A stretch of DNA of 64,000 nucleotides from Octopus vulgaris (taxonomy: Eukaryota). Made by a program: the position numbers and the translations under genes. Below, in pieces: positions 28,290 through 56,907 of this stretch; the stretch's first letter is position 1; the number at the start of each line of letters is the position of its first letter. The notes beneath the pieces are model-generated. The model did no database searches and had not been told where the DNA came from. It worked only from the letters and a program-made list of their open reading frames with translations. Where the stretch lies: contig OX597839.1 in assembly GCA_951406725.2 (NCBI GenBank), positions 8,370,001 through 8,434,000 on the forward strand, in the 5' to 3' direction.

Positions 28290-29632
28290 ACGTCCGTCCA
28301 TATAACAATACGTCCATATATAATACGTACAAATATAAAACGTCCGTATATAATACGTACAAATATAATACGTACATATATAATACGGACGTATATAATA
28401 CGGACATATATAATACGGACATATATAATACGTACAAATATAAAACGTCCGTATATAATACGTACAAATATAATACGTACATATATAATACGTACATATA
28501 TAATACGGACATATATAATACGGACATATATAATACGTACATATATAATACGTACATATATAATACGTGCATATATAATACGTACATATATCATACGGAC
28601 ATATATAATACGTACATATATAATACGTACATATATAATACGTACATATATAATACGGACATATATAATACGGACATGTATAATACGTACATGTATAATA
28701 CGTACATATATAATACGTACATATATCATACGTACATGTATAATACGTACATGTATAATACGTACATATATAATACGTACATATATAATACGTACATGTA
28801 TAATACGTACATGTATAATACGTACATATATAATACGTACATATATAATACGTACATGTATAATACGTACATATATAATACGTACATATATAATACGTAC
28901 ATATATAATACGTACATATATAATACGTACATATATCATACGTACATATATAATACGTACATATATAATACGTACATATATAATACGTACATATATCATA
29001 CGTACATATATAATACGTACATATATAATACGGACATATATAATACGGACATATATCATACGTACATATATAATACGGACATATACAATACGTACATATA
29101 TATAATACATACATATATATAACACGGACATATATAATACGGACGTATATAATACGTACATATATAATATGTACATATATAATACAGACATATATAATAG
29201 GACATATATAATACGGACATATATAATACGTACATATATCATACGTACATATATCATACGTACATATATAATACGTACATATATAAAATACGTACATATA
29301 TATATTACGTACATATATAATACGGACACATATAATACGGACACATATAATACGTACACATATAATACGTACATATATAATACGGACATATATAATACGG
29401 ACATATATAATACGTACATATATCATACGTACATATATCATACGTACATATATCATACGTACATATATATAATACGTACATATATAATACGGACATATAT
29501 AATACGTACATATATAATACGGACATATATAATACGTACATATATAATACGGACATATATAATACGGACACATATAATACGTACATATATAATACGTACA
29601 TATATAATACGGACATATATAATACGTACATA
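28290..29632. repeat. 15-bp tandem satellite (consensus ATATATAATACGTAC), ~1.35 kb
   Basis: Continuous 15-nt period with variants CGGAC, ATGTA and TCATA; gives IIRTY/YNTYI periodic ORFs. Confidence 0.95.
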
Positions 29633-36673: not shown

Positions 36674-36731
<58 letters not shown>

Positions 36732-36745
36732 AATATTTCAATGGA
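36513..36745 (+). mobile_element. hAT-type MITE, one end only
   Basis: Begins cagtggttcccaacc, a typical hAT/Charlie TIR; no partner TIR found. Confidence 0.45.
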
Positions 36746-36749
36746 TGAA

Positions 36750-37635
36750 TGAATTATCCAATGTTTACCGTTAAACTGTTACCAAGGTAGCCAAATTCCC
36801 GTCAGAAACACGGCTGAAGCGACCTATCCAAAGGTAGAAACTCCAGGTTAATGTGCAGTAATTTGTATGTTATAAATGAATAAATAAATAAATGGAGTTG
36901 AACGAAGATGTTAATAAAATTCTTTTACTTTCGACATATGTTTCGAAGACAATATGGTTTTATTCCAAAGGAATAAACGGTGTAAAATGCAATCTTCTCA
37001 TCAGGAAAGAAAGAGAGCCTCTCTCAACAACAAGACGTTATAACAATTACGATGACTGCCTAAATGATAAACAGAACGTTATTAAGTATTTTTAAAAAAC
37101 CGTTAGCAGATTTGACGTCAAAGGCAGATAGTAGAAAGAGAAGGGTTAAAGGAATAATAAGTAGAGAACAAGTAGAGAGGGGTATATAGGTTTAAAAAAA
37201 TGTTCAAAGGCTTGGAAGTAGATTTCTCTATTGAAGTAAAGTGCAAGTTAAACTAACTGTTTAAACTATAAAGACTGGCGATATCACTTATATGAGTAAA
37301 AAGTATGTTTCTGCCAGTGTTTACATTTGTACGATCGCTCTATAAGTGTGTTAACAAGTTGATTCTTAGAGAAGAGAGTATGGAAGAGTTCAGAGTTGCA
37401 AATGTTACAAAATCTCTTGCCCTTATCGAAAGGAATGGATACGTACAGTATGAACCAATCTAACTTAAAATCTTTATTGTTGTCTTTAAGATGCCAAACC
37501 AATTTACTTAACCCTGTACTATGGCGTTTTTTGCTATCCCTATATGATGAATAATGATTTGAAATTCTCTTGGATAACTGTAGAAGTAGACATCGGTACC
37601 GGAAGAAATTTTACACTGGTATATAGAATTCTTGA
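36750..37635 (-). mobile_element. Penelope-like retroelement 3' portion (GIY-YIG endonuclease relic and pLTR)
   Basis: Minus-strand KNSIYQCKI...RHSTGLSKLVWHLKDNNKDFKLDWFIL...PFDKGKRFCNICNSE...LVN...E...KCKH matches the PLE endonuclease C-terminal signature; hammerhead fold downstream of the stop. Confidence 0.8.
36928..37009 (-). ncRNA. Type I hammerhead ribozyme with palindromic minimal stem III
   Basis: Minus strand: ctttc-CTGATGA-gaagat...(tttattcc ttt ggaataaa)...gtcttc-GAAA-catatg-TC-gaaag; stem I ctttc/gaaag, stem II gaaga/tcttc, stem III ACATATGT, GUC cleavage triplet. Confidence 0.8.
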
Positions 37636-37639
37636 GGTG

Positions 37640-37965
37640 GAGGAGGGTGGGGATAGGCGGAGGGTGGGAGAGGAAGGGGTGAGAGGGTGGAGGGGAAAGA
37701 GGAAGGAGGGGGAAAGAGGAAGGAGGGAGGGGGAAAGAGGAATGTGGGAGAGAAGGAGGCAGAAGAGAGAGGAAAGAAAGAGAGAGAGAAAGGAATGCAG
37801 AGACAGACAGAGGAAAGAGAAGGGGAGAGGGGAAAGGAAGCAGGGAGAGGACGAGAAGAAGGAGGGTGGGAGCGGAAGGAGGGATGGAGAGAGAGGAAGA
37901 TACAGAAAGAAAGTGAATGAGGGAGGGAAAAAGAAAGGGAGAGAGAAAGAGAGGGAGAGGCAGAT
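37640..37965. repeat. GA-rich low complexity
   Basis: Polypurine tract. Confidence 0.8.
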
Positions 37966-42961: not shown

Positions 42962-43021
<60 letters not shown>

Positions 43022-43136
43022 TAAAAACGGTAAGATACCAAAAGGAAGAAAGAGACCTAATATTATGTAAATAGAGGAAATTTATCTGTAATATAATATG
43101 TGACAATTATTCAATAGCCAAGATAAAGAGATGGCC

Positions 43137-43199
43137 AGATAACCGAAGAGATGGTGTTGTGGATTTCCACCTCGGCATCCGAAACTCAGAGTTTTATCT
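43137..43199 (+). ncRNA. Variant type I hammerhead-like motif, unit 1
   Basis: agataa-CCGAAGA-gatg...gtgg attt ccac...catc(c)-GAAA-ctcagag-TT-ttatct; stem I agataa/ttatct, stem III ACTC-A-GAGT; deviations are U4->C and one extra C in stem II. Confidence 0.55.
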
Positions 43200-43234
43200 T
43201 GGCTATTGAATAATTGTCACATATTATTTTACAG

Positions 43235-43265
<31 letters not shown>

Positions 43266-43381
43266 TAAAAACGGTAAGATAACAAAAGAAAGAAAGAGAC
43301 CTCAATATTATGTAAATAGAGGAAATTTATCCGTAAAATAATATGTGACAATTATTCAATAGCCAAGATAAAGAGATGGCC

Positions 43382-43444
43382 AGATAACCGAAGAGATGGT
43401 GTTGTGGATTTCCACCTCGGCATCCGAAACTGAGAGTTCTATCT
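43382..43444 (+). ncRNA. Variant hammerhead-like motif, unit 2 (stems I and III mutated)
   Basis: Same core as unit 1, but actgagagt and ctatct disrupt pairing. Confidence 0.4.
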
Positions 43445-43476
43445 TGGCTATTGAATATTGTCACATATTATTTTAC

Positions 43477-43531
<55 letters not shown>

Positions 43532-55580: not shown

Positions 55581-56907
55581 AACATTCAAACACTGAGGTT
55601 TGAAATCAGATGTCACTACTGAATGTTTCTGACAACAACCACTAGAAATCGATGGCGCTCTTTTTTCAACAACAAATACTGTTAGAAAATTACTATTTCT
55701 AAATCTCACGACGTGAGATATTCAGCCACACTACTTTGTAGTAAAGACTGTTTGCCAACATAGCATGGCAGTCCTGGTTTAGGACTAATGTTGCTGTAAT
55801 TTAGCCCCAGGAGACATCGTCCCAAGCTGGCTATACGACACGATCTGTGTCCTTATATTCTCGAACATGGGAATGCCTTGTTCGTTTTTGATTGCTTCGG
55901 CCCTCTCATCACCATTTTACATCATATTGCCTTAGCGAGAGAAGAATGGACAGCGCCCATGTTCTTATAGTGAGTCTTAGGAAGCCGTTGGAAGCAGGGA
56001 TTATAGTTACCTTGAAAGAGGAGACATTCTAAATTTTGCCACAAGGCCAGCAATTTCGGGGAAGTGAGTAGTTTGTCCGTAAAGGCGGACAAACTACCTA
56101 TTTCTTTATTACCCACAAGGGGCTAAACACAGAGGGGACAAACAAGGACAGACATAGGCATTAAGTCGATTACATCGACCCCAGTGCGTAACTGGTACTT
56201 AATTTATCGACCCCGAAAGGATGAAAGGCAAAGTCGACCTCGGCGGAATTTGAACTCACAACGTTGCGACAGACGAAATACCTATTTCTTTATTACCCAC
56301 AAGGGGCTAAACATAGAGTGGACAAACAAGGACAGACATAGGTATTAAGTCGATTACATCGACCCCAGTGCGTAACTGGTACTTAATTAATCGACCCCGA
56401 AAGGATGAAAGACAAAGTCGACCTCGACGGAATTTGAACTCAGAACGTAGCGACGGACAAAATACCGCTAAGCATTTTTCCCGGAATGCTAACGATTCCG
56501 CCAGTTTGTTACCTTTTAATTATTGCGAAAAGCATTATATTCAGGCCCATAAGAGACTTTTGTGAAAGTATAGACCTTTTGGTTGCATTGTAAGTATGTA
56601 TCTGGTCTCAGGGTAACTAGAATCCCTTCTTCCAACTGCTTCCGAAGACTCCCTATAAGAACATGGGCGCTGCCCAATCCTCTTTCACTAAGGCATATGA
56701 TGAAAAACTGGTGATGAATGGCAGAATCAATCAAGAAATGAACTTAATGTACAATGAAATTGAGATACAGAAAGACAGGCATGAGGGAGACAGAGACAGA
56801 CAGAGTATTTGTTGATGAAAAAAGAGCGCCATCGATTTCTAGTCGTTGTTGTGGGGAACGTTCACTCAACTGGACCAGCAGTAGTTACATGCTTTCAAAT
56901 GAATGTT
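55581..56907. repeat. Old inverted duplication: arms 55581-55680 plus 55887-56015 versus 56603-56735 plus 56805-56907
   Basis: ctagaaatcgatggcgctcttttttca..aacaaatact and cagcgcccatgttcttatag..agtctt.ggaagc.gttggaag each occur in reverse complement on the other side. Confidence 0.8.
56025..56515 (-). mobile_element. SINE-B tandem multimer (184-bp units)
   Basis: cctatttctttattacccacaaggggctaaac...gacgaaata unit at 56097 and 56281, with a complete head only on the last unit. Confidence 0.9.

Follow-up and report, generated by a model that had tools for sequence, protein, structure and literature searches.

Head-to-head insertions of a Penelope-like element between (TA)n tracts of Octopus vulgaris and the ends of their arms

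Closest described systems

Among the described retroelements, the closest to the sequences analyzed here are the EN+ Penelope-like elements (PLEs) of the Hydra clade, the nearest named family being Hydra-1_Obim (Craig et al., 2021, PMC8557442). Members of this clade possess a C-terminal endonuclease with CxxC and CxH around the catalytic E and N, RWK and DKT motifs, and a CxCx5C linker, lack CCHH, insert into (TA)n, and leave inverted 5'-truncated copies with a tail on one side; their hammerheads lie near the 3' end and read GAA-ACNN-N-NNGT-T. The octopus family resembles them in these respects, and its ACTC-A-GAGT-T is identical in Penelope-3_HM. It differs in the hammerhead core, CCGAAGA as opposed to CTGA in all Hydra hammerheads listed there, and in the tail, which comprises ~70 nt compared with 30-40 nt.

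Poseidon_Ac (Frangieh et al., 2024, PMC11167929) likewise has two fixed 3' ends that bound a tail and an AT-rich target; in vitro, two reverse transcription start sites flank the tail and both target strands are cleaved and extended. A protein dimer is predicted, hammerhead cleavage is not needed, and initiation takes place inside an RNA that continues into the ORF. The ORF of Poseidon_Ac starts inside the hammerhead, whereas that of the octopus family starts downstream of the tail, and in the octopus family the template AUA at both sites matches the TA target. Pairing of one site with the other in inverted insertions, or priming of both on one RNA, is not reported in the parts of that article covered here. 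Adineta vaga Penelope shares with the octopus family the inverted pLTR, an optional tail on one arm, and junction palindromes, and its pLTR carries a TATA and an Inr-like motif (Arkhipova et al., 2013, PMC3846280); its few copies were explained by self-priming on an antisense template, whereas the thousands of octopus copies permit counts. How the inverted ends and one-sided tails of PLEs form is treated as an open question (Craig et al., 2021; Frangieh et al., 2024).

Metazoan non-LTR retrozymes, like the units described below, are short, non-coding, PLE-derived sequences with a type I hammerhead and a tandem dimer (PMC7229834; bioRxiv 10.64898/2026.07.22.740005). In contrast to retrozymes, which form head-to-tail families with expressed circles and a ribozyme free to fold, the octopus unit contains an inversion that blocks the predicted fold, and it exists in three copies.

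Inverted pLTRs with a one-sided tail are thus already known qualitatively (Arkhipova et al., 2013; Craig et al., 2021), as are hammerhead-bearing Hydra PLEs in octopus and the U4C core change in a viroid (PMC3088659). In the literature covered, mostly at listing level and with the supplements of Frangieh et al. (2024) and of the bioRxiv preprint outside its scope, we found no statement on twin priming of PLEs, on a count of an end rule or on strict end pairing. The same holds for U4C in PLE hammerheads, although the small PLE variants of Luense et al., also outside that scope, may list it.

The locus and its parent family

The window, i.e., the whole stretch of DNA analyzed, comprises 64,000 nt of Octopus vulgaris contig OX597839.1 (assembly GCA_951406725.2, positions 8,370,001 to 8,434,000). 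An earlier reading made from the letters of the window alone (the sequence-only reading) described two ~220-bp units between (TA)n tracts, and they are indeed present (Table 1). The units have a period of 245 and 96.3% identity, with 8 differences over 217 positions, 4 of them private to each, and they are about as distant from each other as either is from a third copy of their junction. Each comprises an inverted and a sense arm. The inverted arm of unit 1 is, as had been claimed, antisense over its whole length to the region downstream of the ribozyme, and its 5' end gets as far as hammerhead N17, 1 nt past the scissile bond. Its partner within the unit, however, covers only ~45 bp (43083-43127); the remaining ~65 nt are the antisense of a PLE 'tail' that occurs in sense only in other copies and that in full-length copies runs on into the 5' UTR, followed by the ORF. 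Reference (ref) coordinates are window positions minus 41879 on the sense arm, which places C3 at 1264, N17 at 1314, the short 3' end at 1354, and the long 3' end at 1424.

Table 1. Coordinates of the two units and their parts in the window
Feature	Position	Strand	Remark
(TA)n target tract, left	42970..43018	.	window sequence
Unit 1	43019-43234		flanked by (TA)n
Inverted arm of unit 1, 5'-truncated pLTR copy	43019..43127	-	ref 1314-1424; terminates at the long (tailed) 3' end
PLE 'tail' of unit 1	43019..43086	-	~70 nt separating the short and long 3' ends
Head-to-head junction of unit 1	43127..43129	.	one extra base; exact junction 3x in genome, all on contig C26
Sense arm of unit 1, pLTR copy	43129..43234	+	extends between the common 5' stop zone and the short (untailed) 3' end
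Type I hammerhead-like motif, unit 1	43137..43199	+	core with U4C, palindromic stem III; predicted cleavage 43193/43194
Stem I	43137-43142 / 43194-43199	+	AGATAA / TTATCT
Core	43143-43149	+	CCGAAGA
Stem II	43150-43179	+
Extra C	43180	+
GAA	43181-43183	+
Stem III	43184-43192	+	ACTC-A-GAGT
N17	43193	+	U
(TA)n spacer separating the units	43235..43262	.
Unit 2	43263-43478		flanked by (TA)n
Inverted arm of unit 2, with tail	43263..43372	-	duplicate of the unit 1 inverted arm
Sense arm of unit 2	43374..43478	+	C3 at 43388; changes private to this unit: 43432 (stem III), 43439 (stem I)
(TA)n target tract, right	43479..43528	.

The genome searched comprises 2.8 Gb in 227 contigs. The unit as query gave 1,636 candidates, a 43-nt core had 162 exact matches, and a 19-nt core in which position 4 was left free had 4,635 (controls, 0). 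Two samples were drawn: a core-anchored one of 90 loci (from 100 listed of the 162 matches, contigs C1-C15) and a downstream-anchored one of 70 loci (from 100 listed of 462 matches, contigs C1-C4, listed places already sampled being mostly not repeated). After removal of 10 duplicates, 150 insertions remained, and 138 of their 150 3' flanks are TA, which bears out the TA association proposed earlier.

The sequence of the units proved to be the 3' end, or pLTR, of ORF-bearing copies. At locus L054, a 1.35-kb inverted arm leads from the short end through the motif and the 3' UTR into a GIY-YIG ORF; at L153, L157, L167, and L169, an upstream pLTR passes through the tail and ~110 nt of 5' UTR into the ORF. 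Loci selected by their GIY-YIG ORF continue into the same pLTR end. The suspected link to PLEs therefore holds, down to a PLE ORF joined to the same pLTR, whereas the notion of a small non-autonomous element does not: the same sequence ends full ORF-bearing copies, and the junction of the units occurs three times in 2.8 Gb. The pLTR and the start of the ORF are represented in contigs from four putative RNA sequencing runs, which do not resolve ends, strand, or level.

Intact 708-aa ORFs are found in a tandem and inverted array of a young subfamily. The single ORF encodes a reverse transcriptase (FDIVDFY / SMGS / YKDD) followed by a C-terminal GIY-YIG endonuclease (IIY..YVG), with RWK in RMRWKAF, DKT in FSDKTKN, CSCRNKELC as the CxCx5C linker, CGLC (CxxC), CPH (CxH), no CCHH, and no Cys between IIY and YVG. 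A Pfam search of the reverse transcriptase fragment matched no RT family, and the GIY-YIG match (E 0.0024) remained below the cut-off. Judged by these motifs and by likeness to Hydra-1_Obim assessed by eye, the family would belong to the Hydra clade; it is a distinct family, with 28 of the first 45 residues identical to Hydra-1_Obim (by eye) and a different pLTR sequence. It appears to be unnamed in the searched supplement text of Craig et al. (2021), which is incomplete in places and in which two short pLTR motifs of the family were not found. An identity as Naiad was dropped, as the endonuclease is C-terminal, and a MITE with terminal inverted repeats was rejected, as the ends are two different sites of one strand.

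The insertions display the anatomy of EN+ PLEs, i.e., 5' truncation, partial tandems forming pLTRs, an inverted 5' copy, and a tail at one end. We regard it as very probable that a Hydra-clade PLE with intact copies elsewhere in the genome left each unit as a head-to-head insertion of its pLTR end, truncated at the 5' side and likely primed from both ends of a cut (TA)n tract on one uncleaved RNA, and that the pair likely reflects later local duplication. The locus itself is an ordinary transposon footprint. The usefulness of the family lies in its thousands of insertions, intact young ORFs, two sharp ends, and subfamily markers.

The dimer is probably a product of slippage, or of unequal exchange, involving the (TA)n flanks and would now be decaying neutrally. 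That it is instead an assembly artefact, produced from two haplotypes or a duplicated read segment, we consider improbable. The repeat is short and lies between TA tracts, and a second copy of the junction was present in 0 of 99 sampled inverted insertions (four that were flagged are palindromic junctions read on both strands), both as an artefact would have it; on the other hand, the two units differ at 8 of 217 positions, with private changes in each and a mutual distance similar to that from the third copy, and the unique flanks are single, not doubled. In four runs (three guessed to be DNA, one of unclear kind) compared with the locus, repeats being skipped, the junction is crossed by a single 57-nt contig that has <31 letters on each side. 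The same window contains a common interspersed repeat as a 184-bp tandem dimer (56088-56466) and an 88-copy 15-bp minisatellite (28295-29632); local tandem duplication is not rare here.

The window also contains, at 36726-37640 on the minus strand, the 3' end of a different PLE family. The sequence-only reading tied this Penelope relic to the units, but it has no DNA match to their family; its endonuclease remnant is 31% identical to the C-terminus of the units' parent element (E 7e-8), and its hammerhead, at 37004, has a canonical CTGATGA core and stem III AC-ATAT-GT.

The hammerhead motif and its predicted cleavage site

A relaxed type I hammerhead descriptor matched the window twice, in unit 1 and at the canonical site 37004 (minus strand), and had 0 matches in each of 10 shuffles. 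Unit 2 fails it because of its private changes in stems III and I, which leave ACTG-A-GAGT and a C opposite A at position 1.1. Rfam gave no hammerhead match in the unit at E <= 10, and on the whole window the 150 matches listed of 475 contained microsatellite and miRNA noise alone. Folded in isolation, the hammerhead shows no unusual stability (z -0.6 to -1.5).

GAAA, stems I-III, and NUH of type I hammerheads are all present, but the majority core is CCGAAGA, not CUGANGA. The variant core and the extra C noted earlier are present, and U4C is family-wide: among the first 100 matches listed, 93 have C4 and 7 have U4, a split as expected from CpG decay. Among 72 copies caught by pattern, U4C occurs in 61, GAA in 70, ACTC in 67, GAGT in 69, and U at N17 in 72, with one extra C/U ahead of GAA. 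Even intact young copies carry U4C. The position and stems of the motif in the pLTR match the Hydra PLE layout (File S2 of Craig et al., 2021), the core differing by U4C. A natural U4C core in a viroid hammerhead, cited in Perreault et al. (2011, PMC3088659), much reduces activity in vitro and is tolerated in vivo; the same core change is here fixed over a retrotransposon family of thousands of copies. We think it reasonably likely that the U4C hammerhead cleaves weakly or only with the help of protein, and that it is dispensable for these insertions. Amplification to thousands of copies with such a core tests the need for hammerhead cleavage in PLEs. Another U4C-type variant within this genome is an unrelated hammerhead-like motif ~100 nt downstream of the element at L022/L045 (core CCGACGA, 4-bp stem II, GAAAC-GTC).

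In folding models, the pairing probability of stem I falls from 0.4-0.98 for the sense arm alone to 0.0 for the complete unit and likewise for the dimer; in the complete unit, the 3' strand of stem I is covered by pairing with the inverted arm, which is predicted to block ribozyme folding. Together with the two stem-breaking changes in unit 2, this argues against the tandem as a working ribozyme dimer.

The sequence-only reading took the units for a non-autonomous retrozyme-like element whose left arm was cDNA run to the 5' end of a self-cleaved RNA and whose tandem was a ribozyme dimer. Its starting point is correct, since the identity of the left arm begins within 1 nt of the scissile bond in this copy, and the dimer formally resembles retrozyme dimers (PMC7229834; bioRxiv 2026.07.22.740005). 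The ends of other arms tell against it. Among the 159 ends not fixed by an anchor (99 partners and 60 downstream-anchored arms), 5 lie <=3 nt from the scissile bond, compared with 6.0 expected from the neighboring rate, and 129 arms cross the bond; the 95% upper bound for ends at the cleavage site is 7% of arms. The breakpoints thus show no tie to the site. None of 30 anchored arms of the young subfamily starts there, the 27 independent best look-alikes of the unit have ends dispersed over 1290-1325, and 2 of 95 long arms end at the site as the window copy does. Within the window's own insertion, moreover, the sense arm crosses the cleavage site. No genomic footprint of a cleaved template was found in the sampled insertions or the young arms. 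The coincidence of arm end and cleavage site is a property of the window copy, not a family trait.

The third copy of the exact junction (L002, G000:C26:9762560-9762775) lies 1.35 Mb away with unrelated flanks and 5 private changes, which might speak for mobility of the unit; it probably reflects DNA-level transfer between TA tracts. Three junction copies among thousands of insertions, all on C26, mean that the unit is not a mobilized retrozyme or spreading element. Nor is there a dispersed head-to-tail family of the same unit (no doubled stub in 99 insertions) or a complete, freely folding hammerhead in every unit. The retrozyme-like model is largely refuted, and we hold it to be very improbable.

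The end rule and the formation of inverted insertions

Inverted insertions of the family have two fixed 3' ends ~70 nt apart, and they combine them with great regularity. Of 150 insertions, 99 are inverted, and of these 95 are long/short, 1 is short/short, 0 are long/long, and 3 are unclassed. Solo copies comprise 33 long, 16 short, and 2 unclassed; under independent choice, ~44-50% of pairs would be mixed. The young subfamily is long/short in 13 of 13 classifiable pairs among 30 loci, which brings the overall count to 108 of 109 classifiable inverted insertions. Such a rule tightly constrains any model and can be tested directly in the existing in vitro assay.

Short ends read CAGATATA in 42 of 69 cases and long ends CCAATATA in 48 of 63; both pass into TA via ATA, and after both sites the template reads ATAAAT(T/C)..CCTC. 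The likeness is one of sequence motif, as minimum-energy folds of 64-nt pieces gave no consistent twin hairpins behind the two ends. The two arms of a pair share minor alleles in 18 cases, compared with 4.3 in permuted pairs (maximum 12 in 2,000 permutations; 82 pairs, 5 partly linked sites), and 15 of 33 informative allele cells are discordant. Among the 95 pairs, the short arm reaches farther 5' in 50, the long arm in 24, and both equally in 21; in 12, the arms have no overlap at all. Neither arm is therefore a plain copy of the other, although the excess of pairs in which the short arm leads loses significance once the 12 pairs lacking overlap are set aside (38 vs. 24, p 0.10), and later one-sided deletion could mimic non-overlapping arms. 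In 12 pairs the long arm stops within the tail, in 9 of them <=16 nt from the short site (p 0.004, with a window chosen post hoc).

We lean towards double priming, in which the target ends prime at the long and short sites of the same RNA, each via AUA/TAT pairing. The enzyme would cut the (TA)n tract, and both DNA ends would prime on one uncleaved RNA, each at its own site; the two cDNAs would halt, mostly near the RNA 5' end just upstream of stem I, and would be joined through microhomology or short palindromes. A related process operates in L1 twin priming: the same RNA also serves the second target end as template, and the inversion is joined by microhomology. There, the position of the second site is random and the arms lack overlap, whereas the octopus family has two fixed sites and, in most cases, overlapping arms. 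Counting against AUA-paired double priming is an anole assay in which the start site of reverse transcription is the same for both strands and is not homologous to the cut DNA (Frangieh et al., 2024). Shared alleles are also expected if a cDNA folds back, if one locus supplies two RNAs, or if gene conversion occurs.

Fold-back is in our judgment unlikely. In this model a single cDNA would start at the long site, turn back on itself, in many cases at TGGCCA or at the palindrome of stem III, and copy its own strand; the endonuclease would resolve the product at the short site, and later deletions would yield asymmetric junctions. Fold-back does predict arms meeting at the same template position, as in 21 of 95 pairs, many at the palindrome TGGCCA, and junctions are often palindromic (10/95 overlap by 6 at TGGCCA and 2/95 by 13 at stem III); about half of the young pairs have arm stops <=30 nt apart. 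It would also produce the strict long/short pattern and the shared alleles, and both self-priming (Arkhipova et al., 2013) and endonuclease-mediated resolution (Craig et al., 2021) have been proposed. However, in 50 of 95 pairs the short arm holds template absent from the long arm, 12 pairs have no overlap, the AUA context is the same at both ends, and reverse transcription initiates at both sites in vitro (Frangieh et al., 2024).

A still less probable alternative has two RNAs held by an asymmetric protein dimer, one primed per site. Overlapping arms would then need no strand displacement, very unequal arms such as those of L054 (1.35 kb vs. 170 nt) would fit, and a dimer has been predicted (Frangieh et al., 2024). 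Against it, the arms share subfamily and rare alleles beyond permuted pairs, which would require both RNAs to come from one locus, and nothing known forces the asymmetry.

Free arms also tend to stop at a common place: of 84 reaching the core, 64 halt at ref 1243-1264, within 21 nt upstream of the core. Solo copies begin at ref 1238-1264 in 33 of 51 cases; core-anchored solos cannot start farther 3', and among 18 downstream-anchored solos, 7 do. As solo copies also start in the zone, the TGGCCA palindrome alone is insufficient to explain it. Of 34 window-type copies that are long enough, 33 carry a TATAA 29-31 nt ahead of the A at ref 1250. The arguments seem to us evenly balanced on whether the stop zone, just upstream of stem I, is a transcription start. 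It may alternatively be a splice acceptor, but the copies showed no recurring upstream exon and the contigs no GT..AG joint.

The young subfamily (2,482 exact pattern matches in the genome) is without the TATAA box and has more long arms than window-type copies. The stop zone persists in it, in 9 of 27 arms as against 64 of 84 window-type arms (p 1e-4), and a second cluster of 5' ends lies 334-348 nt upstream of C3 (5/30 arms). Between the two subfamilies, 34 of 216 fourfold-degenerate sites differ (three old copies, their own decay included), compared with 2 of 66 hammerhead positions, both unpaired, and 0 of 64 positions of the tail body in the closest alignments. By these comparisons the tail is clearly conserved (p 3e-4 at 12%), and the hammerhead weakly so once the anchor is removed (p 0.02-0.07).

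We tentatively hypothesize that double priming on a single uncleaved RNA is an obligatory step of PLE integration. Both (TA)n strands would be cut by a protein dimer, and one end would prime at the short site and its counterpart at the long one, through AUA/TAT pairing; from an RNA starting inside the pLTR, both cDNAs would run off after 100-175 nt like retroviral strong-stop DNA, and long copies would come only from tandem, circular, or jumped templates. If this is true, a single step would account for TA targeting, for the tail on one side only, for the inversion of the pLTR, and for the abundance of tiny stubs, and the U4C hammerhead would be retained as an attenuated or structural motif.

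The young array with intact ORFs (L204/L205, G000:C1:57208785-57222600) consists of four head-to-tail 2,580-bp units and 1.2 inverted units, 99.3-99.96% identical; it contains two intact ORFs, one at L204:2628-4754 (minus strand), and its outer ends are one long and one short. The differences among its units, at 7 sites, are nested; unless changed later, the units therefore do not all derive from one circle. At least two pairs of sampled loci with near-identical junctions, L077/L078 and L110/L111, 470 kb and 29 kb apart, are probably segmental duplicates, each perhaps representing one event. Finally, five inverted insertions (L058, L088, L108, L110, L111) contain 130-280 nt of other sequence between their arms, possibly template switches onto foreign RNA or DNA.
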